64,000 nt of DNA from Anaerolineales bacterium (GTDB lineage Bacteria; Chloroflexota; Anaerolineae; Anaerolineales; UBA11858): NCBI GenBank assembly GCA_016785015.1, contig JADHTJ010000004.1, positions 16,142 through 80,141 of the forward strand, in the 5' to 3' direction. The translations under genes and the position numbers were made by a program. The notes under the pieces are model-generated. The model made no database searches, was not told where the DNA came from, and saw nothing but the letters and a program-made list of their open reading frames with translations. Position 1 is the first letter of the stretch, and every line of letters starts with the position of its first letter. This document shows positions 21,631 to 54,173 of this stretch, piece after piece.

Positions 21631-22416
21631 TCAGCGGAACATACCGCGTCGGCGCCAATTAATTATTGGAGCCAAAAGGCGGCGAATGAAGTATCGAAAA
21701 TAGATCCACGAAAACCAACTACCGCCCTCCCGGCGATGGATGCGCAGCATCTCCGGCCAGCAGTGTTCATCTGCAGCGATTGTCTTGGCATCATCGTGCA
21801 AGCGGAAATTTGCCCAAATGTGACCTGGGAGATATCGAATCTCGGAAACTTTGGATAATCGCACCCACAGATCGTAATCCATGGCGAAATAGAAACTTGG
21901 ATCCAACGGGCCAACTTCCCGCCACAAATCGGCTCGCCAAAAAGCTGCCTGCTGAGGGATATAGACTCCGCCCCTTCGCAGACGCGTGTAGCTAGTCTGC
22001 TGGGCGTTAAATTTACCAATCATCTGGTCATCGGCAGCGATGAAGTTCGCATCGCCATAAACCATGCCAATTTCGGAATTCACCTGTAAGAACTTCACCG
22101 CTTCAGAGATTGCTCCAGGCTGGTACGTATCGTCAGAATTCAGCCATGCCAGGATATCACCTTTGGCTTGCGCGAAACCCTTGTTGATGGCCGCCGTTTG
22201 GCCTTGATCCTCTTCGGATACCCACCAGGCGATCTGATCTTGATATTCTTGAATGATGCCAACACTACCATCGCTTGAACCGCCATCAATAACAATATAT
22301 TCTACGTGAGGGTAATCCTGCTGCAATATCGAGAGAATTGTCGCTTCTAGATATTTGGCCTGATTAAAGGATGGAGTAACAATAGAAACTAGCGGATGCT
22401 GATCCACTGATTCCAT
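21631..22416 (-). CDS. glycosyltransferase family 2 (GT-A fold)
   Basis: 261 aa with [44 protein letters not shown] and the DxD-type block AWLNSDDTY. It is a paralogue of the N-terminal domain of the next gene upstream. Confidence 0.85.
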
Positions 22417-24260
22417 TCCTCTTCAGAGTAGAATTTTTCGATCACATCCGCGGTCAGGTGCTTTACTCGGGCGATCTCATCTTCAGTAAGACGATGCATC
22501 CAATTGAACAAATTTTCCCGGCTATCTAGCTGCGTAGAAAATTCTTTCTGTCTTGGCTGCTCGGGAGGGTTCTTTGGGCGAGTAGATCGCATAATCGAAT
22601 GGCTAACCCAAGGGGTAAAAGAAAGCCCCAAGGCATCGTACATTTCATGGTATCCCTCTGTGGGTTGTAGTGAAATATCTTCATGCCTCACCACCACAAA
22701 ATCCGGATGTGTTTCTTTATATCGGTCCACGACACAATAAACCATGCGCCACAGAAGGGCACCCTGTCCGATAATATCATCATCCAAACCTAACATTCCT
22801 TCCATGTCTTCTTTGAAGGGTTGCAAGTGATCACGCATTAAGAGTGGTTGATCCAAGATATTCTGAAAATCGAAAGTCCATCCTAATCGTTTGAGGCTGC
22901 TGACGAAAGCTACTGGATGCCGCACAACGATAACAATTTTGCATCCCAAACGTTTTGCAAACCAAGGGCAGGAGAATACGGCAAATGGATCTTTAAGCAA
23001 TGGCCGCGCATCGGTAAGATTCCCCTGAAGAAAGCGCCACATATCCCGCAGCATGCGACCAAAATCCCGGGGCGAACGAATTGAGAGAATCTCGGTACTG
23101 AAGTGATAACGATATTCAACAGTTTCACTCAGGGCAGGGAGAAAATTGTTTTCGTTTTCGTCGCAGATATATTGGTACCAATGCTCGACCGGTTTGCGCA
23201 TCACCCCAGGCCGATGCCAAAGGTTAAGAGGTTCGCTGAGATAAATCACATCCTTGCTGGCAGCGATCATCTTGCCAACCCATGTCGTTCCAGAGCGATG
23301 TACACCCGTAATGAGTATTGGCGCACTGCGCCCCTCGATCCTTAGGCCTGGCCATGTTTTTAGGCGAGGATCATCACCCACATCCGGCCGAAAATGCACC
23401 ATCAAAGAGTAGTACCAATCCGCAGTGCCGCTCCAACCGAGAAGGCTCAAAAAGGCATAGATTATGCGGTGCCAATAGAATTTGAGCAAACGCGGGTTTC
23501 GGATAGTTGCCCGCCAGTAATCTCGCAATGCAGGGCCGGGCAATCCACCTTCAAGTAAATAACGTCCACTGATGCGGAAGGCGCCGCCTAATATTCTTCT
23601 CTTAAGTTTCTTTAGTGAGGGCTGTAATGAACTGCGGGTTTGCATCCAATCGAGGACATGAAAAACTTCGGTGCTGAATTCAGCCGCGCGAGCTACATTT
23701 TTCGCTTCTCGATGATGTCGAGCACCGGCCCAAATTTCGGGGATGTGCTTGACTTCTGAGATTTCAGCAATTCGCAGCCACAGATGATGATCAAGTAGAT
23801 AATGGTAATTAGAGTCTAGAAAACCAACCTTCTGAAGGGGGTCCCGCCGCATAAACACTGCAGGCTGACAAATAATGTTGTAACACATCAACTCATCCAA
23901 ACCCAAATCACCAAAGGTTTGATTGTGAAGAGGGTACCCATTAGCGTCCATCGAGATGGCATTGCCAAATACCATTCCTATATCCGGATTTTCGTCCAGC
24001 GCGCTAACCGCCTGTGATATAGCATCCGGGAAATAAATGTCATCAGAATTCAACCAGGCCACCACATCCCCCTGCGCCCTTTTCAACCCTTTATTGATCG
24101 CCTCTGCCTGACCTTTGTCTGATTCCGATACCCACCAGGCTAAATGATCAGCATACTTCTTGATGATATCCACACTTCCATCTGTTGACGCCCCATCGAC
24201 GATGATATATTCGATATTGGGATAATCTTGCGCCAACACCGAACGAATGGTATCTTCCAA
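22389..24260 (-). CDS. bifunctional GT2 glycosyltransferase / sulfotransferase fusion protein
   Basis: The N-terminal GT2 domain shows [17 protein letters not shown] and AWLNSDDIY. The C-terminal sulfotransferase domain shows a 5'-PSB-like [18 protein letters not shown] and a 3'-PB-like [12 protein letters not shown]. The track start (TTG 24260) cuts off the conserved first strand. The frame stays open upstream and encodes [15 protein letters not shown], so the true start may be non-canonical near 24323. Confidence 0.75.
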
Positions 24261-34540: not shown

Positions 34541-36430
34541 TCAATCCTTGGCTGTCGCTTCGATATATGCGTCCGATAGCCTGTTAATAGCAACGATGAA
34601 TCCTTCACCGCCGCGCTGATGCCCACGCCATATCTCTGGGATCATTGTGCCGTGATAATCTTTGACAATTTTGAAGAACCTGACCCAATCAATATTGCCT
34701 TGGCCAACCTGCAACCCTTCTCCGTCTATTCCAGCCGCATCAGAAAGGTGCAAATGTGAGATATAAGGCAAAATGACTTCGACTTGCTCATAAAAATCTA
34801 CCTTAGCCCAATTGCAATACAGCTTATGGTGCGATGTATCATAGCAAGTCATCATGCCCATCGAATCAAGGAATTCCTTGATCTCATGAGTATCCATAAA
34901 AGCATTGGTCAACCACTGACCACCGAAATACCAGGGGTGAGGCGGCAAGTTTTCGATTAACACTTCTACGCCATCGCAGTCAAGTTCTTCTACGGAACGC
35001 TTAAGATTATCGTACAATCCTTGACGGTCCGTTATTGGGTTGTCAATGCTGGCCGCTCCAGGATGTACGACTACTTTCGGGGTACCCACAAAATGCGGGG
35101 CCATATCTCGAGTGACATTGATGGCCCTTTGCAGGATATTCACGGAAGCCCTGCGATGGTCATCATCAAAGGTGCATAAATCCACCAAATGGTTCGTCCA
35201 AAATTCAGGTGCATGGATAACTAATTGAACATCTAGATCATCCCCAGGGTAAGGTTCATCCAGGTCTTTATCTGTAAAATGGAATTCCAACAGAGGTGGA
35301 TCATACTTGAGCATATTTCTAAAATCATTGAAACGTACAACGAAGCCCCACTCCATAGGCAGGGTATGCTCCATATCGAGCGTCACCCGGCGACCGATAT
35401 CAACGGGCAAATATGGCTCGTCAGCTTCAATGTCTCGCACAGATACTCGGCCAATCAAATCAGTATAACGCTGCGGAGATAGCCCCTGGCCAGGACCCTT
35501 TACCGTCACCATTTCACGAGTAATCTCTTCCCCGGGCTTAATATGCCGTGTTGCCACCAAACTCTTGGCCAGAACTTCACGGTTGAGTATCTCGCCCATA
35601 GTAAAGAATTTCTCTTCACTAGTACCCATAGCAATTGATATCTGCCGGATATCTCGCACCATTTTCTTGAACCCATGGGGTTCGAGGCTCGAGGCATGAT
35701 CAGGCCCATCCATGGTGCGGTCGAGTGTAATATGGCGTTCAATAATACTGGCACCCAATGCGGCAGCCACTGTTGATACCGAGATCCCGCGTTCATGCCC
35801 TGAATATCCGACCGGTACACCATAGTCACGTAGGCGATCCATAAAACGCAAATTGATATCACCGAATGCCGCCGGATAGGCACTGTTACAATGCAATAGC
35901 GCGAATTCCGCATCGCGTTCCTTGAGAAACGCGACTGTCGTTTCAACTTCTTCCATGCGAGACATGCCCGTTGATACGATCAGCGGTTTGCCTTTGTCGA
36001 TGAGATAATCGATTAAGGGCAAATTGATCATATCTGCTGAGGCAACTTTGAATGCGGGCACCCCCAAAGATTCGATAAAATCGGCGCTATCCTGATCAAA
36101 GGCTGAACACATGAAGGTCACGCCCTTTTCACGGCAATAGTCAACGATTTTGTGATAGTCAGCATCCGAGAGTTCGACTTGCTGCAAAATGGGCAGCAAA
36201 TAATTTAAGTTCTTCTCACCGACATTGGCGTTATCGAGGTATTTTTTGGGGTACAGCTTTTCAAGATTGCGTTTCTGAAATTTAACTGCGTCTACTCCTG
36301 CATCAATTGAAGCATCTATCAATTCGAAAGCGTATTCCAAAATCCCATTATGGTTGACGCCAATTTCAGCAATGATATAAGCCGGATGTCCATCACCAAC
36401 AAGCTGGTCACCAATTTTTATCTCAGGCAT
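34541..36430 (-). CDS. NeuB-family (N-acylneuraminate/ulosonate) synthase with SAF domain fused to a xylose-isomerase-like TIM-barrel (AP_endonuc_2-type) domain
   Basis: 629 aa. The NeuB N-terminus is AYIIAEIGVNHNGILEYAFELIDASIDAGVDAVKFQK, plus LHCNSAYPA and SGHERG. The SAF-like segment is SLVATRHIKPGEEITREMVTVKGPGQG. The C-terminal ~265 aa (LEFHFTDKDL...VVHPGA...ENLPPH...SHLHLSDA) looks like a sugar-phosphate isomerase/epimerase TIM barrel. Confidence 0.7.
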   Translation of the reverse strand: MPEIKIGDQLVGDGHPAYIIAEIGVNHNGILEYAFELIDASIDAGVDAVKFQKRNLEKLYPKKYLDNANVGEKNLNYLLPILQQVELSDADYHKIVDYCREKGVTFMCSAFDQDSADFIESLGVPAFKVASADMINLPLIDYLIDKGKPLIVSTGMSRMEEVETTVAFLKERDAEFALLHCNSAYPAAFGDINLRFMDRLRDYGVPVGYSGHERGISVSTVAAALGASIIERHITLDRTMDGPDHASSLEPHGFKKMVRDIRQISIAMGTSEEKFFTMGEILNREVLAKSLVATRHIKPGEEITREMVTVKGPGQGLSPQRYTDLIGRVSVRDIEADEPYLPVDIGRRVTLDMEHTLPMEWGFVVRFNDFRNMLKYDPPLLEFHFTDKDLDEPYPGDDLDVQLVIHAPEFWTNHLVDLCTFDDDHRRASVNILQRAINVTRDMAPHFVGTPKVVVHPGAASIDNPITDRQGLYDNLKRSVEELDCDGVEVLIENLPPHPWYFGGQWLTNAFMDTHEIKEFLDSMGMMTCYDTSHHKLYCNWAKVDFYEQVEVILPYISHLHLSDAAGIDGEGLQVGQGNIDWVRFFKIVKDYHGTMIPEIWRGHQRGGEGFIVAINRLSDAYIEATAKD

Positions 36431-40220: not shown

Positions 40221-41150
40221 TCACCAACCAGTTACCAATAGATCACCAAGTAAGGCATTATGTACTCGAATCACGGCATGTTGTACATCTGGGAACTGGA
40301 TTTCAATCGTCTCCCACACTTGGGCGCGCATACGCAAACTATCGCATTTATCCTTGGGTTTGGCAAAATCACCTCGCAACCAAACTGTAGTCTCACCTTC
40401 TGCAGGTCCAGGCTCTACATCTTCAACACGCAGCGATGATGCATGCATAGGGTTATACAGACCATTGTAATACTGGTAGTTGTTAGAAAATAATGCATTC
40501 AATGCATTGGTGATATCCACTTCTAATACACCAGTTCGCTCAATGCCTGGAGCAATATACAGGAGACTATCCCCGCATCCGAAAGGGCCACCCGTATTTT
40601 CGGCAACCATGAAATAATAGATCCCGTCTCCACCTATATTGGAAGCTGGTTCTCCGGTTGGCGTTGGTGGTGGGGTTAGTACAGGTACACCGGTCACATT
40701 GCCACCGACAGTTACAACATTGTCCGAAATCCAGCAGGTCTTGTCACCTTCCGCTATATAGATTAACCACCACAGTAAATCGCCTTCCACAACACCTTCA
40801 ATTGCTGGAGCATCTCCAATCGATAAATAACCAATAATCGGGTAATTGGTTCCTGGGCCGGTTCGGCAAACTGCATTCTGATCCACTAGCATGGCTGGCG
40901 GGATTGGCGTTGGCGTTTGAGTTGGCGTGCTAGTCGATGTCTTTGTAGGTGGGATTTGGGTTGCCGTTTGTGTCTCGGTTGGTGGGATGAGCGTATCTGT
41001 CACCGTTAGAGTCCAAGTCGCTGTGGGGGCTTTTATTGTCGCTGATGGCGGCACTGGGCTAGAGGTAGGCTCTGAATTGACTGGAAAAACACAACTTGCT
41101 AAAGCAATTGATAGCGCAATAAAGGGCAGTAATTTTCTAATACTTTTCAT
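40221..41150 (-). CDS. lipoprotein with Thr/Pro-rich linker, SH3b-like domain and GerMN-like C-terminal domain
   Basis: I set the start at ATG 41150 (MKSIRKLLPFIALSIALASCVF, a signal peptide with an LASC lipobox). A PT-rich stretch follows (IPPTETQTATQIPPTKTSTSTPTQTPTPIPP). Then comes the SH3b-like NAVCRTGPGTNYPIIGYLSIGD. The C-terminus (YYFMVAENTGGPFGCGDSLL...VWLRGDF) resembles GerMN. Confidence 0.6.
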   Translation of the reverse strand: MKSIRKLLPFIALSIALASCVFPVNSEPTSSPVPPSATIKAPTATWTLTVTDTLIPPTETQTATQIPPTKTSTSTPTQTPTPIPPAMLVDQNAVCRTGPGTNYPIIGYLSIGDAPAIEGVVEGDLLWWLIYIAEGDKTCWISDNVVTVGGNVTGVPVLTPPPTPTGEPASNIGGDGIYYFMVAENTGGPFGCGDSLLYIAPGIERTGVLEVDITNALNALFSNNYQYYNGLYNPMHASSLRVEDVEPGPAEGETTVWLRGDFAKPKDKCDSLRMRAQVWETIEIQFPDVQHAVIRVHNALLGDLLVTGW

Positions 41151-41212
41151 GGGCTTACTTCTTATTTGTAAATCTACTGGATGGTATATAATTTGGCACA
41201 TTCGAATAGAAA

Positions 41213-42820
41213 ATGGGTATAGCCTTTATGAACTCTCTCAAGAAAAACTGGCTCATTGTTTCGTTATTAATTGTTTATTTCATTTACGCAGGCCTATATA
41301 TCTATCAGACCAGCTTCATTTCTGATGGCACTCGATATTTCGTTCTTTTTGACGATGCCATGATTTCAATGCGTTACGCCAAGAATTTCGCAGATGGTTA
41401 TGGGTTGGTTTGGAACCCTGGCGAAACGCCCGTCGAGGGGTATACAAATCCCTTATGGGTGATGTTCATGGCGTTCTTTCATTTGTTCCCACTTCCCACA
41501 GAAAAAATCAGCCTGGCAATTCAAATAAGTGGGGCAATCTTTTTAGGTGCAAATCTGATATTGGTCAAGAAGATCACCAATTTGATTTCTTCGAGTTTTC
41601 TATTGCCCCTCTTCGCAATACTGCTAACTGCCTTTTATACACCCCTGAACAACTGGGGCTTACAAGGCATGGAAGTCAGCATTTTGGTACTCCTGCTCAG
41701 TGTTGCCGTCTGGAAATTGCTGGTAGATTTCAACGACGACAAGTTTTCCCCATGGCCCTATCTTCTACTTGGTTTTGGAACGTTTGTCAGAGTTGATATG
41801 GCTGTGGCCTATCTTGTGCTGATAGGTTTTAGCGTTGTCTTTATTCCTAAATATCGCTGGCGGCATTTGCTGTGGGGTGTTGGATTGCTTGTTGCATTTC
41901 TTGCCAGCCAAACTCTTTTCCGGATTTGGTATTATGGCGATCCTTTGCCAAATACCTATTATCTAAAAATGAGCGGAATACCTCTCCTCACCCGTGTCAA
42001 ACGTGGTTTATATGTGCTCTACCAATTCGTATGGGAAATGAACTGGGTCTTACTCGCTCTCCCCTTCGCCTATTTAGTATTCAAACGAGACCGCAAAACG
42101 ATCCTGCTTGCATTGTTGGTACTTGGTCAACTTGCCTACAGCGTTTACGTTGGTGGAGATGCCTGGGAACATAAAGGTGGTGCCAACCGTTATATTGCTT
42201 TAGCAATGCCGATGTTCTTCATTCTATTCGTTTATTCAATCGACCAGATACTTCAAGCAATAAAATCCTCGAGCGCAATTCCAAACACCCCAATTTCAAC
42301 ACAAACCATGGTAAATATGGCGCTCGTAACAGCAATACTCGCAAGCCTCATAAATTTCAACTTCATCCAAAAAGATATTCGATACTTAGAACGCTGGTTG
42401 CTGCTCAGGCCGCCAATCTTCATCGAGGGCAATAAAGAAGCGGTACGTATCGCATCAGCGGTTCGAAAAGTCACCACTTCAGATGCTGAAATTGGCGTCG
42501 TCACTGCTGGGGCAATTCCATATTTCGCTGACCGCCTTTCTCTCGATCTACTGGGGAAAAATGACGCATATATTGCCCATTTACCCAGTCACATCGCTTC
42601 GTCATTGGATGACATCCGTCCTGGACATATGAAATGGGATTACGACTATTCGATTGGCCAACTCAAGCCGGATATGATCCTGCAATTGTGGGGCGATAAA
42701 ACAATCGCCTATGACTATATTGAACAGTACTACACTGTGATCGAGGTTGATGGGATGTTATTCTCTGCCCGGAGTGATTCTCCATATATTTTGTGGGATC
42801 GCGTCGATTCAACCCCTTAG
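41213..42820 (+). CDS. polytopic membrane protein, GT-C-like glycosyltransferase candidate; only plus-strand gene in the cluster
   Basis: 535 aa. First loop: [38 protein letters not shown], an Asp-rich first extracytoplasmic loop as in GT-C enzymes. It has more than 10 TM segments and a soluble C-terminal ~130 aa. The start could be ATG 41228. Confidence 0.45.
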
Positions 42821-43824: not shown

Positions 43825-44868
43825 CTACCAATCCAAATCTTTTTCATAACCCCAATCCTGAAGTGTTCTTCCCGCAATCTCTTTGAAAATCTGTTTATCG
43901 CGCTTCGTAAATAGATCACGCCAAGAGCCAGATTTACCTTTCTTCAATGGCTCGACTAACTCGCCAGCTTTCTGACGCTGCCATTGAGCATCGGGGTTGC
44001 TGCCCAACTCTTTCTCTAATATTTCTGGCAAATCAGCTTTTTTTGTTTCAACACCCAAAAATTTCCAGAGGCGTTTCATTTGCTCCCAAGAATTCTTCAG
44101 CAAATCTTCATAACGAACAGATATATATTGTTGATCTCCAAATAATTCTTGACCCATCCGGTTGGTTTCAGTCACATTGCGAACCCAACTTTCTGCAGAA
44201 CGGCGAATCCCCGACTGGGTATATATTGATCGCTCACCATTCATAAATGGTTCAGGGTTCTTTTCGAAATCTTTGCGAATAGCCCAATCTTGCTTGGTGA
44301 GATGCTGCTGCGCATCAATAAACTGCTGGAAGCGGTGTGAAATTACTGCATCACGTCCATCTCGCACAATAAAGATCAATTTGCCCTCAGGGTAAATTTT
44401 CACCATCCTACGTACAGCTTCACCATTGAGTAAACCATTAGGGCTTTTATCCCCCACAACCGTAGCTCCCACCTGCCGGGCTTCGCGTTCCATGACAAAC
44501 TCAACCGCAGCGCGCATCACTACAGGAGAAAGGTCGCCACCGCGATTCCAGCGGTTGCTGCGTCGTGTCAACCAGGATTCAATTGCTTTGCTGTCAACCA
44601 GCCCATCCATTGTAGGTTTGCGAGTGAAAAAATGTCCTTGATAATTACAATGAGCAGCGGGATGGAGACGAATCAAGCGGGTAAGCAGGGTTGTGCCCGA
44701 ACGGGCATGGCCGAAAATAAAAAACTTGTCCAGAGGAAAAAAAACTTTAAATTCAGCTACATCATCAGGTGTGAGGGCAGGGATCTCGCCTCTCGGCTCA
44801 GTTCTTATTTCCCCGGTAAAAAACACTCGGGCTGCTAATTGGATGCGCTTGGAAATTTTGGTAATCAT
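43825..44868 (-). CDS. sulfotransferase (PAPS-dependent)
   Basis: I set the start at ATG 44868 (MITKISKR...), 4 nt after the upstream stop. The track start at 45084 would overlap the upstream gene by 212 nt. The 5'-PSB motif is FIFGHARSGTTLLTRLI and the 3'-PB motif is FIVRDGRDAVISHRF. Confidence 0.8.
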   Translation of the reverse strand: MITKISKRIQLAARVFFTGEIRTEPRGEIPALTPDDVAEFKVFFPLDKFFIFGHARSGTTLLTRLIRLHPAAHCNYQGHFFTRKPTMDGLVDSKAIESWLTRRSNRWNRGGDLSPVVMRAAVEFVMEREARQVGATVVGDKSPNGLLNGEAVRRMVKIYPEGKLIFIVRDGRDAVISHRFQQFIDAQQHLTKQDWAIRKDFEKNPEPFMNGERSIYTQSGIRRSAESWVRNVTETNRMGQELFGDQQYISVRYEDLLKNSWEQMKRLWKFLGVETKKADLPEILEKELGSNPDAQWQRQKAGELVEPLKKGKSGSWRDLFTKRDKQIFKEIAGRTLQDWGYEKDLDW

Positions 44869-44872
44869 ATTT

Positions 44873-46303
44873 TCAATTGAGTAGCGCCAGCAAATATTCC
44901 GCAGTGCGAACCCCAGCTTTGCCATCCGTGAACGTACATTCGCGAGTGATGAAATCTTTCCTGGCATGCTGATCGGCAGCAGAGTCATCCAAATAACGGT
45001 TGATCGCAGCCTGCAACTCAATTTCGTTTTGGGCCTCGCGTCCTGCGTTCGATTCTCTGTACCGCTCGTGGGTAGGCCAGCCACCGATCTTTGTCAGTGG
45101 CAAGGTGAATTTTCCTGGCCAACCTTCAGGAGCATCAATGCATAAACTAATCACCGGCGTTCCATGGAGCGAAGCTTCTACCACCATCGTCGAATAAACC
45201 GTTACCATCACATCAGAATAAGCCATCATTGATGATTTCTCGGGCATATCTTCACCGGAGTAATAACTCATCCCACCTTCTCCCAATGGCACAGGCTCAA
45301 CTACATGAACATGGGGCAATTCCGCAGCAAGCTCTCTAACCCTCTCGCGCTCGGCAGCAAAACGAGGTGTTTCCATGAAATGTGTGGGGTGCAAACGGAT
45401 CAGCAGTTGCGAGGGCAGCGATAACTTTTCTTCAGATACCAATCTCGCTAATGCTTCTACATTCTGGATATTCGGTGAAAAAGTAATAAAGCTGCTGGCG
45501 TAGGAGATCAGTTTTCGATTCGGATCCAGGTTGTGTAGCCTGAAATATTCATCTCGTGCCATCAGCCATTCGCCGCGCACATAGCCATCGTAAGAAGGGA
45601 TGCCCCCAATATTCACGCGTTCGGGAGGCCAGTCCGCACCGAGAACAAGTTCCTCTTTTTGTAGTTCCGACCAACACGATATCCAGTCCACGGGAGCGCC
45701 TGGTAAACTGTAACTGCTGGAGTTATCCCATCCGACGATCACAGCCGCTGTTTCCAAACCGCGTGCAGCAGCTTCTCGGAGCAAGTAACGATCGTAGCGC
45801 CATCCCGGTGTGCTGGCAATCACCAAGTCCGGAGAATATTTCTCAAACAAATCCGCGTAAAGATTGGGATTGAAACGGTTCTGATATCGGACTAACCACC
45901 GACGTATTAGCCAGGAATTTCGCAAGATCTTGATCACCATTCTCATCAAAGGGAACAATGCCTTGCGCTTGGCGTGGGCATCATCTTCGACTTGACCAAT
46001 AAAGCCATCCACAGCTTCCAGGTTGATGCGGTTTGAGGCCCCAGCGCGCCGCAAGAAATGCAGCCACCATTGTAAAGACGGTCTCTCAGTACGTTCATAA
46101 GCCTTGGCTTGTTCCAGACGCAGGCCTTCGACTACCAATCCTTGGCGCCCAAAACGCTGCTGTATCTGATCGATAAGTGCATCATCCGTAAGCAAAACAA
46201 CCTCGACACCAGCTTCAATGAGTGTTGCAATAACATCGCTCTGAAGAAAATAAATTGCTGCTAACCCATGGTCTGCGCAAACAAATATACGCTTTGATGA
46301 CAT
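44873..46303 (-). CDS. GT-B-like glycosyl/glycerophospho-transferase candidate (Capsule_synth/TagF-like layout), function uncertain
   Basis: 476 aa with PDLVIASTPGWRYDRYLLREAAARGLETAAVIVGWDNSSS, then LLIRLHPTHF (RxHP), then ~70 aa later DVMVTVYSTMVVEASLHGTPVISL. No family assigned with confidence. Confidence 0.35.
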   Translation of the reverse strand: MSSKRIFVCADHGLAAIYFLQSDVIATLIEAGVEVVLLTDDALIDQIQQRFGRQGLVVEGLRLEQAKAYERTERPSLQWWLHFLRRAGASNRINLEAVDGFIGQVEDDAHAKRKALFPLMRMVIKILRNSWLIRRWLVRYQNRFNPNLYADLFEKYSPDLVIASTPGWRYDRYLLREAAARGLETAAVIVGWDNSSSYSLPGAPVDWISCWSELQKEELVLGADWPPERVNIGGIPSYDGYVRGEWLMARDEYFRLHNLDPNRKLISYASSFITFSPNIQNVEALARLVSEEKLSLPSQLLIRLHPTHFMETPRFAAERERVRELAAELPHVHVVEPVPLGEGGMSYYSGEDMPEKSSMMAYSDVMVTVYSTMVVEASLHGTPVISLCIDAPEGWPGKFTLPLTKIGGWPTHERYRESNAGREAQNEIELQAAINRYLDDSAADQHARKDFITRECTFTDGKAGVRTAEYLLALLN

Positions 46304-46306
46304 AAA

Positions 46307-47155
46307 TTATTTCTTTGTATAAACTACCTGATAACCCGTTGGAGCTAAACTAAAAGCTTCGTACGGGGATTTGATATGACCAGCGCCTATTACAGGCTCC
46401 ATCAGAAAAGCTAAAAAGCGAACTCCTGCCAACAATATGCGTCCGACATACTGACGCCAACCGCGCATCTTGCGCAAAATGGGCCATTGGATATTCCTGA
46501 TGCCTTCCCCCAAAAAAAACATGGGATCGTAAAAACCTTCAAGTCTTTCAATTTCCAGCCCGTTATCCTTTCCTAATTGTTCTAAGGCAAAATGAGTGTA
46601 ACGGAAATAATCTAAAGGAATTTGATGCATCTTGACCATGAATGGGATGGCTAACAAAAGCTTTCCGCCGGGCTTGAGAATCTCTGCGACGGATTTGAAT
46701 AAGCCTTGTGAATCAAATACATGCTCTAATACGTTTAGCACCAATGCTGCATCGAAACTCTCCGGTCTAAAAGGATTGGTTTTTGTCAGATCACAGACAA
46801 TATCGATCTCGGGGTAAGGATAAACATCCAATGCAACGAAGTTTTTCCCTTTCAGGGCTTCCAAAAAGTCTCCTCTCCCCGCGCCTACATCGAGAATCAA
46901 ACATTCCGGGTCTTGAGCTTTCAGCCAATCGGCCAAAAATTCCCAATTAGCCTGCCGCCATGGCGTGCCAATATCTGGGCCGCGAATTTCTTTTTCAGAT
47001 GGCTGGATGCCTTCAGGGATTTCGGTGAACATGGGGATGCTATCGCGTTGTGGAACTATATTTTCACACTTCTCACACTGAAGAGCATTCTCACCACTCA
47101 TTTGGAAGCCCCCACCACAAATTTCGCACTTCAATATTTCGAGTAGTTTTTTCAT
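46307..47155 (-). CDS. class I SAM-dependent methyltransferase with N-terminal zinc-ribbon
   Basis: I set the start at ATG 47155 (MKKLLEILKCEICGGGFQMSGENALQCEKCENIVPQ, a CxxC...CxxC ribbon). Motif I is LILDVGAGRGDF, and the post-I region is VLNVLEHV. Confidence 0.8.
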   Translation of the reverse strand: MKKLLEILKCEICGGGFQMSGENALQCEKCENIVPQRDSIPMFTEIPEGIQPSEKEIRGPDIGTPWRQANWEFLADWLKAQDPECLILDVGAGRGDFLEALKGKNFVALDVYPYPEIDIVCDLTKTNPFRPESFDAALVLNVLEHVFDSQGLFKSVAEILKPGGKLLLAIPFMVKMHQIPLDYFRYTHFALEQLGKDNGLEIERLEGFYDPMFFLGEGIRNIQWPILRKMRGWRQYVGRILLAGVRFLAFLMEPVIGAGHIKSPYEAFSLAPTGYQVVYTKK

Positions 47156-47163
47156 ATTTGTTA

Positions 47164-48123
47164 TTAGCGATGCAGGAACTCGAAGATGCGGTGATAAATC
47201 CAATAGAGAAAATCTTCGGCAAGCTGCCAGTGCAAAATTCTGGGCCGGTTGCGTTCTCTTCCTTTTAGGTTGGTCAGTGCTCCTCTGGCATTAAATCCGT
47301 TCTCAGAGAGTCGATTACCTAAATGCTGCACCCACCATTCTGGTGTGGAGAGACGCAGATAACCCTTCTCGTTGATTGCGACATCCAATAGACGAACTTG
47401 CCCCATGGGGCGTTCATTGGGAATTGGCAAAACGCTTTGGAAAGCTCTCTTAAATCCCACAAATTGGAAATGTCCAGCACCGACATAGTAGTGCTCGCCT
47501 TGATAAGTCAAGCGAATGTCTTCAACGTCCGCGAAAAACTCGCGCACTTTCTGCTCGTCCCCACCCAAACTTCGGGCATGCCGCCAGTGTTCTTCCCAAG
47601 TCAAGAATTCCCCTCTCTCAATCTCTGCATCAGGATTATTCACAGCCCATTGTACAGTACTGGTGGAGAACTCTGCTGGGCTCCACATGGGAATACCGGT
47701 AACCATACCGACATTAGGGAATTTTTCAAGAACATCTAACTGGGCTGTGAGCCAACCAGGATAATAATACACATCACTGTCAGCGTAGGCAATTACTTCC
47801 CCAGGAGCAGCGCCAAAAATAACATTCCAAGCACCAGCCTTCCCTATGTTCTCCTCTGAGAGCAGCAAATATTGAATTTTGCCTTTTTCCTGCATTTTCA
47901 GAAGGTATTGCCTGACTTCAGGACAACTGGCATTATCAAACACCATCAAATCATAAGACTCATCCGTATGATCCCAAATGCTATTTAGACAAATCTTGAG
48001 AACATCCAAACTCTGCTCAAAATATCCGCTTAACAGCGGAATGTACACCACTGTCGCAACGGTCACTCTTGCAGGTTGAGGAACTTCTTGAATGAATTTC
48101 GCCGGATTCTGACCTACGCGCAC
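47164..48123 (-). CDS. GT2-like (GT-A fold) glycosyltransferase, paralogue 1 of 3 (MR[VI]GxNPxK family)
   Basis: 319 aa with MRVGQNPAKFIQEVPQPARVTVATVVYIPLLSGYFEQSLDVLKICLNSIWDHTDESYDLMVFDNAS and the DxD-like AYADSDVYY. Homologous to 50365..51399 and 51433..52386. Confidence 0.65.
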   Translation of the reverse strand: MRVGQNPAKFIQEVPQPARVTVATVVYIPLLSGYFEQSLDVLKICLNSIWDHTDESYDLMVFDNASCPEVRQYLLKMQEKGKIQYLLLSEENIGKAGAWNVIFGAAPGEVIAYADSDVYYYPGWLTAQLDVLEKFPNVGMVTGIPMWSPAEFSTSTVQWAVNNPDAEIERGEFLTWEEHWRHARSLGGDEQKVREFFADVEDIRLTYQGEHYYVGAGHFQFVGFKRAFQSVLPIPNERPMGQVRLLDVAINEKGYLRLSTPEWWVQHLGNRLSENGFNARGALTNLKGRERNRPRILHWQLAEDFLYWIYHRIFEFLHR

Positions 48124-48126
48124 AGG

Positions 48127-50352
48127 TTATTTCTCCAATACTTGTTGTGATTTATGGCTCATTTTCCAGGGGTAAAGCTCCCCGCTGGCCAGTTGATCTA
48201 GCAGAAGTGCAAGAGTCATCCAGCCCATCAGTCTGAGTTGTATCCCAATTGGAATTGCATGACGCTCAACCTCGATAGGGTTACCATGCCAAATAATGAA
48301 CATCAATGGGTAAAGGCTGACAAGCAAGACAGCGACAACGATCCAAGGTGATTGCATTTGATTTTTATCCAAAAGATACCGAAACACTCCTAATAAAGCA
48401 ACACCAATAAAAATGAAAAGTAGCATTAAATTGCGCGGATAAAAGCGCTGCGTTAGCGTTTTCAACCAAAGCGGCACTGTTGGAACTGCATAAAGGGGTT
48501 GATGGTATTCAAGGTTATCGCCACTAAATAGCGTTGGGAGATGGTGGAAAGGTTCAATCAGCGATTCTATCGGATTTGAGAGAAGATACATCATATAGGT
48601 AGACATACCATCCGAATTAATCCACTCTCGAACCGAGGCCATTTCCGGGTCGTTTAACAGGTAATCGTGGAATTCATGACCAAGCATATCTTTGATTCCG
48701 AATAAACTTTCACTTAGTGGCATTCCAGCAGCAGCGAAATATTCTAGAGCGTCTTGGTTCGGCAGAATGCGATGAGCTAAATGATCGAACAAATGAATTT
48801 GCCAAAGATTACTAATATTGAACGAAGCATTCTTTAAGAAAACGATGCCAACAAACAAAACCAAGTATGCTAAGTAATAAACTCTACTCCATTTCGGTGT
48901 TTTCCCGAAAAAATTGGCAATCACAAAAATAATAGCTCCAAAAATAACGAAATATTGATTGCTCTCGCGAGAGAAAACATATAAGATTGTGAAAAGGATT
49001 GTTAAAGTTAGATACCCAAACTGAGTAATATGACTAGGCTGTTTATGGGATGTCGCATTCCATGCTACCCACGCTGCAATGAGCAGAGCAAACAAGGAGA
49101 ATGAGGTTGATTCGGAAAGTATCAAACTGTCCCAAATAGATATCTCCAAATTTATACTGAAATATAATACGAACACAAAAACGAAAGGCTTGAGCCACAG
49201 TGCGCGCATTCGTAAAGAAAAGGCTACTGCAAGAGTTGTCCAAGCAAAGATCGAGAACCAGTATTGGAACTGAACCAAATCGAAATATTGCTCAATTTCT
49301 GTATAGTTTTCTATTGTGATGCCAAAGTATTTCAGAGTTAATGGATATGTGAAAGGGCGAATCCCTGCCCAAAAATCCAGCGTATCTAATGGTTCATCGG
49401 CTGTTTTCACGTACCATTCTGTATCGCGGAAAATTCTCTCTGTGCTAAATTCCATGTAGGAAAATTTGGCATCTATAAATAATGCGAATATTCCCACATA
49501 TAACAAAGCCAATATCACTTTAATAATCGGTGAACTGGGCCACCGAGCATCTACAATATATCCAACTAAAGAAAATATTGTGAACAGAGAAATAAAGTGA
49601 AGTACTAGAAGAAGTGAAATCAACAAAGTATTCGCGATTGTTGAAGAGCCATCACTAATTACACGTTCCGCAGAGATACTCTTGGGGGCAAAGAGATCAA
49701 ATTCTGTTGGTTCTTCATCCCAGACGATGGCAACTTGGCCAGCATTTTCGTTAAAACGGAATTGAAGTACAACTCCACCTGGCATCCGGCTCTTTAACTC
49801 AGCAACAGAGTTTGATTGCCTCCCTATGGAGATCAAAGTTTCGCCAACAATTTGCCAATCTCCCGATAACTCAAATTCATTCATTGGAACTGGGCTGCCA
49901 TCAAGATAGCTGAGTTTGCGAATCTCAACAACTGTACCTACTGATTGCGCATTTTTAACCCCTGTTGAGATGATCTGCAAATTACGCTGCTCTGAGAAAT
50001 CAGGCTGAGCCAGAGGGAATAAAATCAGTGTCAAAATTGAAACTGCGGCGCTAGTCAGAAGCAAAAAGCGTATCTCGCTCTTAGATATCTCTTTTAGCAA
50101 AGGAAAAATAATGTATTTTCCCAGCAAAGCCACAATAAAAAAAATAACGGGAAGAAGAATAATGCTTTTGGAAAAGGCGCGTATTGAATAAACCCCATAT
50201 TGGTTTCCAAAGTATAGGGATATCGCCAGCAGCCACCAAGCAATCGTGATCACTGTCAATGATAAAAGATATAGCAGAACGTCTTTGGTTGTTTGATGCG
50301 GTTTAGAAAAAGGAGGGAAAAAACTCTGGAGCATGTTTAAATTATTGTCCAA
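48127..50352 (-). CDS. large AT-rich polytopic membrane protein with an N-proximal soluble (beta-rich) insert; function unknown (polymerase-like candidate)
   Basis: 741 aa. About 3 TMs are followed by a ~120-aa non-hydrophobic segment (NLQIISTGVKNAQSVGTVVEIRKLSYLDGSPV...VLQFRFNENAGQVAIVWDEEPTEF), then more than 12 TM segments. No family recognised. Confidence 0.5.
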   Translation of the reverse strand: MDNNLNMLQSFFPPFSKPHQTTKDVLLYLLSLTVITIAWWLLAISLYFGNQYGVYSIRAFSKSIILLPVIFFIVALLGKYIIFPLLKEISKSEIRFLLLTSAAVSILTLILFPLAQPDFSEQRNLQIISTGVKNAQSVGTVVEIRKLSYLDGSPVPMNEFELSGDWQIVGETLISIGRQSNSVAELKSRMPGGVVLQFRFNENAGQVAIVWDEEPTEFDLFAPKSISAERVISDGSSTIANTLLISLLLVLHFISLFTIFSLVGYIVDARWPSSPIIKVILALLYVGIFALFIDAKFSYMEFSTERIFRDTEWYVKTADEPLDTLDFWAGIRPFTYPLTLKYFGITIENYTEIEQYFDLVQFQYWFSIFAWTTLAVAFSLRMRALWLKPFVFVFVLYFSINLEISIWDSLILSESTSFSLFALLIAAWVAWNATSHKQPSHITQFGYLTLTILFTILYVFSRESNQYFVIFGAIIFVIANFFGKTPKWSRVYYLAYLVLFVGIVFLKNASFNISNLWQIHLFDHLAHRILPNQDALEYFAAAGMPLSESLFGIKDMLGHEFHDYLLNDPEMASVREWINSDGMSTYMMYLLSNPIESLIEPFHHLPTLFSGDNLEYHQPLYAVPTVPLWLKTLTQRFYPRNLMLLFIFIGVALLGVFRYLLDKNQMQSPWIVVAVLLVSLYPLMFIIWHGNPIEVERHAIPIGIQLRLMGWMTLALLLDQLASGELYPWKMSHKSQQVLEK

Positions 50353-50364
50353 TTATCAATAAAG

Positions 50365-51399
50365 CTACTTGGAATCACTATAGAGAACATCAAATAAGAG
50401 AGAGTATATTCGTTGGATAAATCGGTTTATGGTTGAACTTCGTGCAGCTGCCTTGGATAGCAATGTCTTCAAGAATCCATCTCGTCGGATACTCGTTTCG
50501 GTGGAATCAGTAATATTCAAAGATGTTACGCCTTTGAGCCGCACTTGATCAACCTCAGCAGTATTTCGTCCCTTCAACGAATTGCCAAGATGATAGACAA
50601 GCGGATCTGGGAGCGAAAGCTGTAAATACCCTAATGCTTCCATTCGACGATTGATATCAAAGTCATCTGCTGGATCCAATGCCATGGTTGCTGGAAGAGG
50701 AACTAACTTTCGAGCCAACTCCCTACGAAGCATAAATTGCATATGTGTTGTCCCAACAACAGCACCCACTCCAGACGTCTGGTTTGTTGCTACTTTCAAG
50801 CGATTCTGCAATAAACGCTGGTATACATCATCTGAAGCACCAATGCCGTCACAGTATTCAGCTAAAATTCCAGGATCTGGCTGCTCATCTGAAATTTGAA
50901 CTGCTTTATTTTCTGCTAACTGTTTTGCCGCTTCAGCTACACCGGGAATGCCATCGAAAAATGCCGGTTGTGCGCTGACGATGCCAACTTGATCAAATGA
51001 ATCAAAGATCTCCAAACTGCGCTGCATCCACCCCGGGCGAAAGAGAACATCACTGTCTGTAAACACGATGAACTCGTTGGGCATTGCTGAAAAAATCCAG
51101 TTCAATGCACCGGTTTTTCCCAGATTTTGTTTAGAGAGAAACAGCCAATCAATAACCCCCGAATGGTGCTGTGTTGTTAGGAATTCTTTTAGCTCATCGC
51201 AACTGCCATTATCAAAAACAAGCAAATCTATATCTTCAGCAACCGTTTGTCGAAGGCTGTGGAGATGCACATCGATGACGTCCAATGCTTCCTTGAAGTA
51301 CCCATCTAGGAAAGGGACGAAGGTGATCGACGCCACTCCAATACGCTTTGGAGAATATGCTTGTAATCGTTTTTTTACAGGATTTGAACCAATGCGCAT
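50365..51399 (-). CDS. GT2-like (GT-A fold) glycosyltransferase, paralogue 2 of 3
   Basis: 344 aa with MRIGSNPVKKRLQAYSPKRIGVASITFVPFLDGYFKEALDVIDVHLHSLRQTVAEDIDLLVFDNGS and VFTDSDVLF. Confidence 0.65.
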   Translation of the reverse strand: MRIGSNPVKKRLQAYSPKRIGVASITFVPFLDGYFKEALDVIDVHLHSLRQTVAEDIDLLVFDNGSCDELKEFLTTQHHSGVIDWLFLSKQNLGKTGALNWIFSAMPNEFIVFTDSDVLFRPGWMQRSLEIFDSFDQVGIVSAQPAFFDGIPGVAEAAKQLAENKAVQISDEQPDPGILAEYCDGIGASDDVYQRLLQNRLKVATNQTSGVGAVVGTTHMQFMLRRELARKLVPLPATMALDPADDFDINRRMEALGYLQLSLPDPLVYHLGNSLKGRNTAEVDQVRLKGVTSLNITDSTETSIRRDGFLKTLLSKAAARSSTINRFIQRIYSLLFDVLYSDSK

Positions 51400-51432
51400 A
51401 GTGTCAATTAGGACAGATGAGACAAACTTAAT

Positions 51433-52386
51433 TTATTTGGTGCTGAAGTAAATTTGAAATATTCGGTTGTAGAAATAGAGCAGCATTTTTTTCAATGGAG
51501 GCCATTTCCACAAAGTGTTGCGAGTTTTTTGAATGTAATCGATTGATGCTGACACTTCTGCCTGAGCAGGCATCACATTGCCCATATGCACAACCAAAGG
51601 ATCACTTATCATCAATCGCAGGTAACCCTTCTCATTGAGGTTTTCGTCCAGGGTTCTAACCTGCCCCATAGGTTTATCCATCTCAAAAGGTAGCAAGGAT
51701 GCAAGAACATTCTTCTTCGCGACAAATTGAAAGTGAGCCGCTCCTGCATAGGCGGTCAGACTTCCAAATGATAGTCGGTAGTCGTAGCTAGTTTGGAACC
51801 ACTCTTCAGTCTGCTCCAAAGAAACGCCGCAGCTCAATGAATGTGCGCTGAAAACATGCCAGGGTAGGAACTGACCTTTTTCTACGCCAACCCCATCAGT
51901 CTGCTCAGCCCAATTCAAAGTTGCGGAGAAATATTTCTCTTTGCTGCGTAAAGGACGTCCGGTCACCATGCCGACCTTGGGAAAGCTTTCCAAAATTTCC
52001 AATGATTGCGAAAGCCAGCCTTCACGGAATAGGATATCGCTGTCTGCATAGGCAACGATGTCTCCAGGTGCAGCACTAAATACAAAATTCCAGGCGCCAC
52101 CCTTCCCTAGATTTTGTTCAGAGAGAGTTAGAAATTGGATATTGCCTTTCGAATACTCATCTCGAAGGTATGATTGCGTTTCTTCCCCGCTGCCATTATC
52201 AAAAACTAATAAGTCGTACGATTCGGTTGTGTTTGCTCTCAAGCTACGTAGGCTGAGCTTGAGCACATCCAAACTTTGCGCGTAATATCCACTCAAGAAA
52301 GGGATATAGGTAACAACAGCTACCGTTACTCTTTTCGGTTTCGACACTTGCTGCAGGGATTTAGCGGGATTCTGGCCAACACGCAT
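51433..52386 (-). CDS. GT2-like (GT-A fold) glycosyltransferase, paralogue 3 of 3
   Basis: 317 aa with MRVGQNPAKSLQQVSKPKRVTVAVVTYIPFLSGYYAQSLDVLKLSLRSLRANTTESYDLLVFDNGS and AYADSDILF. Confidence 0.65.
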   Translation of the reverse strand: MRVGQNPAKSLQQVSKPKRVTVAVVTYIPFLSGYYAQSLDVLKLSLRSLRANTTESYDLLVFDNGSGEETQSYLRDEYSKGNIQFLTLSEQNLGKGGAWNFVFSAAPGDIVAYADSDILFREGWLSQSLEILESFPKVGMVTGRPLRSKEKYFSATLNWAEQTDGVGVEKGQFLPWHVFSAHSLSCGVSLEQTEEWFQTSYDYRLSFGSLTAYAGAAHFQFVAKKNVLASLLPFEMDKPMGQVRTLDENLNEKGYLRLMISDPLVVHMGNVMPAQAEVSASIDYIQKTRNTLWKWPPLKKMLLYFYNRIFQIYFSTK

Positions 52387-52392
52387 TTTTGA

Positions 52393-53271
52393 TTACTTGA
52401 TCGGCACCCAGGCCTTATGAGGAAAAAGTTTTTGTAGGATTCGCCGCCAAAGCAGACCAAAACGCCGTTTCAGTGCAACATTGCGCTCAGGTTTTACTTG
52501 AAATCGAACTTGTCCGTGCTCACGGGGTTTCGCCAAAACAGTCAAATAAAGTGGCAATATTCTTGAACGTGGGTGCCCATGTTGCTTTAAAACAACGATT
52601 TGAAAACCAGCCTTATCGAGCACTTGTCCAAGGGAATGTGCGCTGAAGCTTGTCATGTGTGCTATTTCGAAACTATCATGGGAGAATAGATTTGGCACCT
52701 CGATCAGCAACCACCCCGAGGGAGTCAGGTAATCCTTTCTCATATCTGCGAGGTAACCAACGGGATCAGGCAGATGCTCCAAGACATGCGCCATGCTGAT
52801 CAAATCAAAATCAGGTTTTTCTGTATCTTCCAAATCACTGATATCCGCATAAACCGTGAGACCTTGTTTTTGAGCATGATTTCGATACGCGTCCCCTGGC
52901 TCTATCCCGATGGCTTCGCATCCAAAGTGATCTCGGAAGCGCTGCAACAAGATACCGCTTGAACAGCCAATATCAAGGTATCGAGTTGGAGTGACTTGTT
53001 GTTGAGCTAAAATCTCCATCAACGCATCGGCGCGCCCATTTTGTACGAAGAGATCTTTCTTCGTCGGGCCTTCTTCACCCTGGTAAACCTGGCGGTATTC
53101 TCGGGCATAGAAGGCATCCAATTCGTCCGCTGTCATGCGCGGAGATTGAAACACCAAGCCGCAGTTTTCACAAATACAGTTGACAACCTGATGCTCGCGA
53201 AACTGACGCTGATCAAAGAGTGAATTTTTATCGCTTAGGCAAAGGGGGCATTGATTGATTTCTTGGGGCAT
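52393..53271 (-). CDS. class I SAM-dependent methyltransferase with N-terminal zinc-ribbon
   Basis: 292 aa with CPLCLSDKNSLF...CENCGLVFQSP, motif I YLDIGCSSGILL, and SMAHVLEHLPDP. Confidence 0.8.
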   Translation of the reverse strand: MPQEINQCPLCLSDKNSLFDQRQFREHQVVNCICENCGLVFQSPRMTADELDAFYAREYRQVYQGEEGPTKKDLFVQNGRADALMEILAQQQVTPTRYLDIGCSSGILLQRFRDHFGCEAIGIEPGDAYRNHAQKQGLTVYADISDLEDTEKPDFDLISMAHVLEHLPDPVGYLADMRKDYLTPSGWLLIEVPNLFSHDSFEIAHMTSFSAHSLGQVLDKAGFQIVVLKQHGHPRSRILPLYLTVLAKPREHGQVRFQVKPERNVALKRRFGLLWRRILQKLFPHKAWVPIK

Positions 53272-53279
53272 AAATGTTC

Positions 53280-54173
53280 TTAGTTTGAAACTAGCTTTCG
53301 TCGCAGGCGACGTAGTTGACGGATCAGCAACCAGCGCAAGCCTCGCTGATCTGGAGAGTAAACAATTCGTTCAAGCTTGCGCACAAAACGGGCGGGATGA
53401 AATCCTACGGGACGAATGCTTTCTCCAATAAATTCATGACTGGCGTCTAAGACCATATACATGTTTTGCATGCCGCCCCCCAATTCGGCATTGATTTGTG
53501 TTTCTTCGAGGTCGTAATGCATCTGGCCGCCAGGAAGATGAGCATAGTCATGGTTCTGGTGAATCACCACCAATGATTCGGTCGCATCAACCACGGACCA
53601 TTTTTTCTGCAATCCCTGGTAGATCATCCAGTTATCCCAACCAGCCCGGCCAATGGCAAAATCGGGAATATCGGCAAATATCGTGCGTGGAAAGATAAAG
53701 TAGTCACTGCCCGCAGGGGCATGTAAAATACCGTTGGTTTGTACGCTATTTCGAAGTTCAGACACCCAGTTATCGTCAAATGACAACTGCTCATTGAGAT
53801 CTAAATCCCAACGCCGCCCAACAATCAGAAATTCCTTAGATTGTTCAACAGTTATACGGGCAACATTCACAAATTCTGGCATCAAAAGCATATCGGCGTT
53901 GACATATGCTAATACAGGGGCCTTGCTTGCTTCTCGAGCCAGGCTAAAAATAGAACTCACAAGGGGCGTCCCCCACTCATTCCTGGCAACATCTGGCAAA
54001 TGCTTCAGGCTATACTCCTGAGCGACCTCTGCCAGCCCATCCTCTTCACCAATTAATAACACTTCGACATCATCACCCAAATGCTGCCAAGATTGAATAG
54101 CATTGCGTTGGATTGTATCGATATGGGTATCCAAGAATGGCTTTGGGGCTGTAAAAATTGTCAGGAAGGTCAT
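53280..54173 (-). CDS. uncharacterised protein, possible GT-A-like glycosyltransferase
   Basis: 297 aa. FLTIFTAPKPFLDTHIDTIQRNAIQSWQHLGDDVEVLLIGEEDG, AYVNADMLL (in the DxD position), GRAGWDNWMI and HQNHDY. The assignment rests on the beta-alpha-beta start and acidic motif only. Confidence 0.35.
   Translation of the reverse strand: MTFLTIFTAPKPFLDTHIDTIQRNAIQSWQHLGDDVEVLLIGEEDGLAEVAQEYSLKHLPDVARNEWGTPLVSSIFSLAREASKAPVLAYVNADMLLMPEFVNVARITVEQSKEFLIVGRRWDLDLNEQLSFDDNWVSELRNSVQTNGILHAPAGSDYFIFPRTIFADIPDFAIGRAGWDNWMIYQGLQKKWSVVDATESLVVIHQNHDYAHLPGGQMHYDLEETQINAELGGGMQNMYMVLDASHEFIGESIRPVGFHPARFVRKLERIVYSPDQRGLRWLLIRQLRRLRRKLVSN

Follow-up and report, generated by a model that had tools for sequence, protein, structure and literature searches.

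A putative GT-C-fold glycosyltransferase of an uncurated family and its adjacent GT2 gene in an envelope-glycan locus of Anaerolineales

GtrB/Gtr*, ArnC/ArnT, CsbB/YfhO and GacI/GacL are pairs of a GT2-family polyprenyl-phosphate-sugar synthase and a glycosyltransferase (GT) of the GT-C type. Membrane gene X, the subject of this report, lies at 48127..50334 on the minus strand of a 64,000-nucleotide stretch of the Anaerolineales contig JADHTJ010000004.1 (the window), directly downstream of a GT2 gene (GT2b), and its product has a predicted GT-C fold. Enzymes of the GT-CA class possess a module of seven transmembrane (TM) helices, TM1-7; two juxtamembrane helices (JM) separate TM1 from TM2, the tip of JM1 bears an Asp that is essential for catalysis, and TM3 is usually kinked (PMC12041299). 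GT136, represented by ORF12 of Citrobacter youngae (Kelly et al. 2024), is a previously unannotated GT-C that was recognised by AlphaFold; it harbors an extra beta-rich carbohydrate-binding domain and acts after export by an ABC transporter, and its donor is a polyprenyl-phosphate-linked sugar from a dedicated synthase in a three-component system of synthase, flippase and GT-C (PMC11127046).

The predicted fold of X is similar to the GT-CA structures of STT3/PglB/AglB (GT66), DPY19 (GT98), AftB (GT89), PMT (GT39) and ArnT (GT83), with which it shares the 7-TM module, two JMs after TM1, the Asp at the JM1 tip, the kinked TM3 and extra extracytoplasmic domains. However, X has no detectable sequence similarity to these proteins and its family displays the motifs DTxxY, WDxxxLSES, SR(E/D)xN and GxxxExxRH. 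The modelled core of X has 10 TM helices, of which TM7 and TM8 are separated by a helical domain, and to this core the Anaerolineales form adds four TM helices and a beta-sandwich at the N-terminus instead of a C-terminal domain. Compared with the published text on ORF12, the Asp-x3-Tyr spacing of X equals that of D31/Y35, whereas the other ORF12 residues shown by mutation to matter, E34, H106 and R349/Y350, have no evident counterpart in X, and ORF12 contains 11 TM helices and a C-terminal carbohydrate-binding module (PMC11127046). The window locus, unlike GT136 systems, lacks a UbiA-type synthase. As in the four GT2/GT-C pairs, GT2b is strictly adjacent to X, co-inherited with it and accessory on a glycan cluster. 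Nevertheless, GT2b contains no C-terminal TM helices such as those of GtrB, ArnC and CsbB, resembles ArnC only weakly (E 0.05) and has no GtrA-like flippase gene next to it, and two more paralogous GT2 genes flank GT2b and X.

Fold, conserved residues and family of X

By its modelled fold X belongs to the GT-CA class, and it falls outside every curated GT-C sequence family tested (Pfam, NCBIfam). AlphaFold2 models built with the family alignment reached a predicted local distance difference test (pLDDT) of 80.7 and a predicted TM-score (pTM) of 0.81 for the full protein, and 88.0 and 0.89 for the core (residues 262-735). The first 21 matches of the full model in a Foldseek search of the PDB were all GT-C enzymes, as were the first 27 of the core model, which included STT3, AglB, PglB, DPY19, AftB, Pmt1/2/4, ALG3 and ArnT (E from 1.4e-4, probability ~1, query TM-score (TMq) 0.41-0.46). 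Below these, the core search dropped sharply to transporters and G-protein-coupled receptors at probability <0.1 and TM-scores of ~0.1. An earlier reading of the window made from the letters alone (the sequence-only reading) had proposed that X might be a polymerase- or GT-C-like enzyme working with the neighboring GT2 proteins, and had named a match to a transporter fold unrelated to glycan assembly as one result that would speak against it. The matches were GT-C enzymes, and the GT-C part of that proposal is supported by these matches, by the GT-CA hallmarks and by the conserved gene order GT2a-GT2b-X-GT2c, both described below.

The hallmarks of the class can be located residue by residue. 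TM1-7 occupy core residues 8-247 of the core model; JM1 (305-313) and JM2 (329-336) are positioned between TM1 (269-296) and TM2 (347-373); TM3 is kinked, being split into 381-393 and 396-403; and TM4-TM7 run to residue 508. Asp304 is positioned one residue ahead of JM1 (which begins at 305, core numbering 44) and is invariant in 28/28 sequences of 22-72% identity (alignments A1, A2, A3). W365, W401, E408, S409, S413 and R456 are likewise invariant across sequences 22-72% identical, and Y308, K335, D402, N459, R522, G537/P539, W571 and G684/E688/R691/H692 are further invariant or near-invariant positions, with ~20 residues invariant across the family. In a predicted topology with the N-terminus inside, the short inside loops contain 10 K+R in 66 residues vs 3 in 30 outside, in agreement with the positive-inside rule, and the long outer domains are acidic. 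The invariant residues would then be located at or near the outer membrane boundary. The parts of X, from the N-terminus, are as follows:

50020..50334, minus strand: N-terminal extension, residues 1-105, with TM helices at 16-42, 60-80 and 85-105 (model, hydropathy)
49639..50019, minus strand: beta-sandwich, residues 106-232 (127 aa, amino acids), acidic, 10 strands
49543..49638, minus strand: fourth extra TM helix, residues 233-264, which would bring the chain back to the cytoplasmic side
48811..49542, minus strand: GT-CA 7-TM module, residues 265-508, with TM1, an outer loop with JM1 and JM2, TM2, kinked TM3 and TM4-7
49423..49425, minus strand: codon of Asp304, whose translation gives RIFRDTEWYVKTA; motif FRDTxWY; putative catalytic residue
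48430..48810, minus strand: all-helical domain, residues 509-635 (127 aa), between TM7 and TM8
48187..48429, minus strand: TM8-TM10, residues 636-716

The beta-sandwich (pLDDT ~80-89; D+E 17 vs K+R 10) corresponds to the non-hydrophobic, beta-rich insert that had been noticed after the third TM helix in the sequence-only reading, and the AlphaFold model confirms it with 10 strands. It gave no match in Pfam, is shortened in the homologues P0013 and P0014 and is missing from the short homologues. By the predicted topology it probably faces outward, and it may bind carbohydrate and thereby hold the glycan. Such a role is plausible because EmbA/B/C, AftD and GT136 are known to carry extra carbohydrate-binding domains (PMC11127046). 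The all-helical domain, with conserved R522, G537, P539 and W571, is also predicted to face outward, and the motif GNPxExERH (invariant G684/E688/R691/H692) is found at the outer end of TM9/TM10.

Sequence searches place X in a large family without a curated model, and the label of orphan given to it in the sequence-only reading has to be withdrawn. A word-indexed search returned 18 homologues, 15 of them full length at 43-65% identity, and a profile search of 1.84 billion cluster representatives (family clusters were counted at 50% identity) returned 2,591 at E<=1e-3, of which 997 reached E<=1e-30. A typical member has ~450 aa and aligns to profile positions ~267-715 alone, corresponding to the X core; the C-terminal ~470 aa of X are thus the part common to the wide family. 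The N-terminal ~260 residues are present in a few dozen members, and ~30-40 among the 150 clusters listed match from near the N-terminus of the profile, the others covering the core alone. In GTDB genomes the long form was found in metagenome-assembled genomes (MAGs) of Anaerolineales and Anaerolineae, and the short form in Thermanaerothrix solaris, Roseiflexaceae, Ignavibacteriaceae, Phycisphaerae, Sumerlaeota and Acidobacteria. Neither the window protein nor the family profiles matched Pfam, NCBIfam or PDB sequences (for the window protein not even at E<=10), and ten divergent members contained no significant Pfam domain over the part homologous to X; the top Pfam match of any homologue was PMT_2 at E=0.36 (P0175). 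Nothing in phages or plasmids matched the family members by tblastn, and literature searches found no description of the family.

The GT2 paralogues, gene order and base composition

X is encoded within a module of three GT2 genes that is flanked by two methyltransferase genes (S-adenosylmethionine, SAM, dependent):

52393..53271, minus strand: SAM-dependent methyltransferase, flanking the module and kept in orthologous clusters
51433..52386, minus strand: GT2a, 317 aa, DSD motif
50365..51399, minus strand: GT2b, 344 aa, PF00535, directly upstream of X
48127..50334, minus strand: X, 735 aa, GT-C-fold putative glycosyltransferase of an uncurated family
47164..48123, minus strand: GT2c, 319 aa, GTG start
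46307..47203, minus strand: second SAM-dependent methyltransferase, downstream of GT2c

The three paralogues with an MRxGxNPxK N-terminus and a DSD motif, first pointed out in the sequence-only reading, are indeed related (46% and 31% identity; phmmer E 1e-44 to 1e-92) and all belong to the Pfam GT2 family, scoring 43.7-59 bits vs a PF00535 cut-off of 23.3. They have in common M1, R2, G4, N6, P7, K9 and D115-S-D117, the latter being an ordinary GT-A DxD motif that is invariant in 18 GT2 orthologues and paralogues. In a neighbor-joining tree, GT2b forms a separate deeper clade, and the single GT2s of related clusters group with the a/c type.

The order GT2a-GT2b-X-GT2c-methyltransferase, with the same flanks, was found in at least 12 distinct loci in which X is 46-65% identical, and wherever a GT2b orthologue is followed by sufficient sequence, X comes right after it. 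Sister clusters (L034, L035, L042-L049) contain one a/c-type GT2 and neither GT2b nor X, on a backbone of cytidylyltransferase, 297-aa protein, methyltransferase, GT2, 476-aa protein, sulfotransferase and GFO-type oxidoreductase. GT2b, X and the extra a/c copy are therefore an accessory module. Only 3 nt separate the stop codon of X from the GTG at which GT2c begins, and a GGAG is present within the 3' end of X, just upstream, which suggests that the two genes are translationally coupled.

The ATG at 50334 is the likelier start of X, because the identical 735-aa database protein P0001 and the N-termini of all homologues begin there; the alternative, a TTG at 50352 (open reading frame (ORF) 48127..50352, minus strand), gives the 741-aa form that NCBI annotates in an Anaerolineales MAG as 'hypothetical protein'. 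Among the longest ORFs, 43825..45084 overlaps 44873..46303 by 212 nt and 46307..47203 overlaps 47164..48123 by 40 nt. Database calls of the methyltransferase 46307..47203, whose listed start is a TTG, have 264-282 aa, and its real start is probably downstream of that codon. Those of the sulfotransferase 43825..45084 (minus strand) also start later (366 aa). Because the database gene calls begin later, the mechanical ORF starts of both genes are probably too far upstream.

The GC content of X (0.400) is the lowest in the window (0.467 overall). When each codon was swapped for the window-average usage of its amino acid, a GC of 0.428 was expected for X, which leaves a residual deficit of 2.8 points (z = -4.45) that is the largest in the window, yet small; ~60% of the total deficit is accounted for by the hydrophobic amino-acid composition. 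Counted on 60-nt lines, the mean is 24.1 G+C inside X vs 28.2 outside. The seven hand counts per 60 nt on which X had been called AT-rich (17, 18, 23, 35, 36, 26 and 26) were exact, but the quoted lines were extremes: the deviation beyond hydrophobic composition that had been proposed as a check is present, but it is only modest (0.400 vs 0.428). GC at third codon positions (GC3) is 0.394 in X, 0.386 in GT2b and 0.379 in 40221..41201, the window minimum. The GC of X orthologues follows that of the host locus (0.403 vs 0.45, 0.503 vs 0.53 and 0.521 vs 0.524), which counts against recent transfer, and orthologues 46-65% identical keep the same gene order. The suggestion of horizontal acquisition was consequently rejected for a recent event. 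An old insertion of GT2b and X into the cluster is possible, because the two form part of an accessory module and are its low-GC3 genes here.

Distant homologues, proposed function and alternatives

Two contexts recur among the distant homologues, UbiA/PHP/flippase-like genes (L008-L010) and MacB/FtsX genes (L007, L022), and only these two. The gene ahead of the short member P0175 encodes a UbiA-family protein that, within NCBIfam, best matches decaprenyl-phosphate phosphoribosyltransferase (E 1.3e-66; 225 bits vs a cut-off of 234), and genes for a PHP phosphatase, a flippase-like protein (TIGR00374) and a DUF362 protein come next in the operon. The short homologue P0018 likewise has a flippase-like (LPG_synthase_TM) gene directly ahead of it. 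The UbiA-PHP-LPG_synthase_TM cassette is located beside an X-family member at 4528..9419 of L008/L009, a metagenomic bacterium-like contig, and the same cassette is found beside GT39-type GT-Cs at 6950..9600 of L036, a Haloterrigena plasmid. Since the cassette adjoins GT39-type enzymes on the haloarchaeal plasmid, it pairs with different GT-C families, and the X family fills the GT-C slot. The arrangement of UbiA, phosphatase and flippase-like genes echoes mycobacterial decaprenyl-phosphoryl-arabinose (DPA) synthesis. Moreover, a phosphoribosyltransferase, a phosphatase and a flippase-like protein in one operon with P0175 recall GT136, although the phosphatase and the flippase-like protein beside P0175 are of the PHP and TIGR00374 types, where GT136 systems have a PRP module and a MATE transporter. 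The cassette appears to be a variant form of the pentofuranose three-component system, distinguished by its phosphatase and flippase. In two distant lineages the X-family member is found directly downstream of a MacB_PCD/FtsX ABC permease gene:

L007, 6694..10160: P0015 (43% identity), downstream of the MacB_PCD/FtsX ABC permease
L022, 6305..9344: Thermanaerothrix solaris member, downstream of the MacB_PCD/FtsX ABC permease

The window itself is one long, nearly all minus-strand envelope-glycan locus. It encodes an LCP ligase and an ABC-2 permease with its ATPase for attachment and export, four PMT_2-type GT-Cs and several GT4 and GT2 enzymes as transferases, two NeuB proteins, three cytidylyltransferases, an MptE-like and a capsule-synthesis-like protein, and sulfotransferases, a PAPS (3'-phosphoadenosine-5'-phosphosulfate) synthase and methyltransferases. 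In this setting X is likely to be an integral-membrane GT-CA glycosyltransferase that transfers sugar from a lipid-linked donor to a cell-wall glycopolymer at the outer face of the membrane, with GT2b as its candidate partner. X would draw on a polyprenyl-phosphate-linked sugar on the outer side of the cytoplasmic membrane; the evidence for such a donor is indirect and comes from the gene neighbors of P0175 and P0018 and from the predicted topology, which puts the invariant residues outside. Asp304 at the JM1 tip would serve as putative catalytic base or nucleophile, and W401/D402, E408/S409, R456/N459 and E688/R691/H692 may grip the phosphate and sugar of the donor. The probable acceptor is the cell-wall glycopolymer, sulfated, methylated and containing nonulosonic acid, that the locus would build, export by the ABC-2 transporter and attach by the LCP ligase, and the N-terminal module of four TM helices and beta-sandwich may hold this glycan like a carbohydrate-binding module. 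By analogy with the GT2/GT-C pairs introduced at the outset, GT2b is the best candidate for the maker of the lipid-linked donor, and GT2a and GT2c, as ordinary GT2s, probably build the chain in the cytoplasm.

Several observations weigh against this assignment. At the level of sequence no tie of X to any known GT-C family was detected: the X family and the PMT_2 paralogues of the window gave a probability of 0.4% in hhalign, and a filter-free search with the family hidden Markov model did not match the four PMT_2 GT-Cs of the window. Structurally, the TM-scores are <0.5 and the Foldseek E-values modest, and the convergence of the invariant residues on one pocket would be a deduction from topology. 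Most of the distant short homologues are found in non-glycan settings (photolyase, carbamoyl-phosphate synthase, nitrite reductase, peptidases), and no UbiA, PHP, flippase-like, DUF362 or GtrA-like gene was found when the window was scanned. The donor-synthase role of GT2b is the weak step, because the GT2 paralogues lack TM helices, chondroitin synthase is their closest solved relative and ArnC follows at E 0.02-0.05. GT2b has a grand average of hydropathy (GRAVY) of -0.10 and only an amphipathic-looking C-terminal helix. Against the PDB, the profile of all paralogues (A5) was led by chondroitin synthase (E 3e-7), with ArnC at 0.021; with the GT2b-only profile (A7), KfiA (E 0.008) and ArnC (0.052) ranked ahead of chondroitin synthase (0.33). 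Neither profile matched GtrB or DPMS.

The order of the Foldseek matches, with STT3, AglB and PglB at the top and then DPY19 and Pmt, would also suit a protein glycosyltransferase like oligosaccharyltransferase (OST) or PMT, and the cluster encodes a possible substrate, a secreted-looking 326-aa protein (40221..41201) with a long linker rich in Pro and Thr. This appears unlikely, as GT-C subfamilies scarcely differ in Foldseek (TMq 0.40-0.46), X contains neither a C-terminal periplasmic domain nor a WWDYG-type motif on inspection of alignment A1, and the locus consists mostly of polysaccharide genes with an ABC-2 exporter and an LCP ligase. A Wzy-like polymerase or WaaL-like ligase that uses polyprenyl-diphosphate-linked oligosaccharides is quite improbable. 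X is a large polytopic protein without family annotation, and no other gene of this glycan locus is as AT-rich, a combination that wzy genes typically show. Nevertheless, no WaaL, Wzy or SEDS protein was present among the Foldseek matches, though such structures exist in the PDB, and X gave no Wzy_C or O-antigen ligase match in Pfam. An ABC-2 transporter and its ATPase are among the products of the locus, no Wzx-type Pfam match was found on the window proteins scanned, and an Asp at the JM1 tip is a feature of GT-CA enzymes (PMC12041299). The polymerase role suggested in the sequence-only reading is accordingly not supported.

It is highly improbable that X is a recently transferred, fast-evolving orphan without a fixed role in the cluster: the lowest GC and the largest corrected deficit of the window, together with related clusters that lack X, would fit such a gene, but the gene order holds across at least 12 loci whose X proteins are as little as 46% identical, orthologue GC tracks the host loci, about 60% of the deficit reflects amino-acid composition, and some 20 residues are invariant family-wide. 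Hardly any credence is given to a non-enzymatic membrane protein (a transporter, scaffold or flippase) that merely resembles the GT-C fold. The TM-scores below 0.5 and the MacB/FtsX ABC permeases beside the members in L007 and L022 are what such a protein would predict. Nonetheless, transporters scored TM ~0.1 at probability <0.1 in the same Foldseek searches, and the predicted topology turns the invariant charged and aromatic residues outward, the orientation seen in GT-C active sites.

A broader form of the GT-CA glycosyltransferase reading is tentative and rather doubtful as a whole. The X family would be a new CAZy-level GT-C family in MAGs of at least six phylum-level groups, in which the short members may form the transferase arm of an undescribed variant of the polyprenyl-phospho-pentofuranose system (a DPPRS-like UbiA, a PHP phosphatase and an MprF-type flippase-like protein). 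Anaerolineales would then have fused a glycan-binding module of four TM helices and a beta-sandwich to the core and recruited the TM-less GT2b as a new kind of donor synthase.

Other genes of the locus and meaning of the family

Several other products of the window are without firm annotation or have unusual architectures. A 535-aa polytopic membrane protein is encoded at 41213..42820, the one plus-strand gene in a set of ~48 called long ORFs, and has no match in Pfam, NCBIfam or PDB. Its gene lies beside the GFO-type oxidoreductase gene in most of the related clusters examined, including the X-less L035, L043 and L045-L047, and was absent within 17 kb of L034. Its N-terminus (...EGYTNPLW) resembles another GT-C first loop, and the protein may represent a second unannotated GT-C family; hhalign and filter-free hmmsearch found no relationship of the X family to it or to the haloarchaeal GT39 proteins. 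The 326-aa protein of 40221..41201 (minus strand) is secreted or lipoprotein-like, with a long Pro/Thr/Ser-rich linker and a composition-corrected z of -3.25, and could be an O-glycosylation substrate of GT-C enzymes of the locus.

A 297-aa protein (53280..54173, minus strand; only NTP_transf_3 at E=0.066) and a 476-aa protein (44873..46303, minus strand; weak matches to BFO_1060-family and Glyphos_transf glycosyltransferases) belong to no firm family and were found in all related clusters. At 6229..7998 of L034 and 5282..7902 of L035 the 297-aa-protein and methyltransferase genes are each split into two to three small ORFs, most likely by frameshift assembly errors in these long-read-style contigs and possibly as pseudogenes. 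Three fusion proteins are also encoded on the minus strand: NeuB, SAF and a xylose-isomerase-like TIM barrel (34541..36430, 629 aa), GT2 and sulfotransferase (22389..24260, 623 aa), and methyltransferase and GT4 modules (17972..21541, 1189 aa). The last is reminiscent of the chain-terminating or polymerising enzymes of ABC-transporter-dependent O-antigen pathways.

Cell-envelope glycans are decorated and diversified outside the cytoplasm by GT-C enzymes, and new sequence families with this fold still come to light only now and then, GT136 dating from 2024. The present finding extends a known enzyme class and does not overturn current understanding. The X family comprises ~2,600 clusters at 50% identity and is spread over Chloroflexota, Ignavibacteria, Phycisphaerae, Acidobacteriota and Sumerlaeota, and without a curated model its members are labelled 'hypothetical protein'. 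A profile of the family would improve the annotation of envelope biosynthesis in the poorly studied monoderm Chloroflexota, and the strictly coupled GT2b-X module offers a concrete, testable candidate for a pair of donor synthase and transferase.

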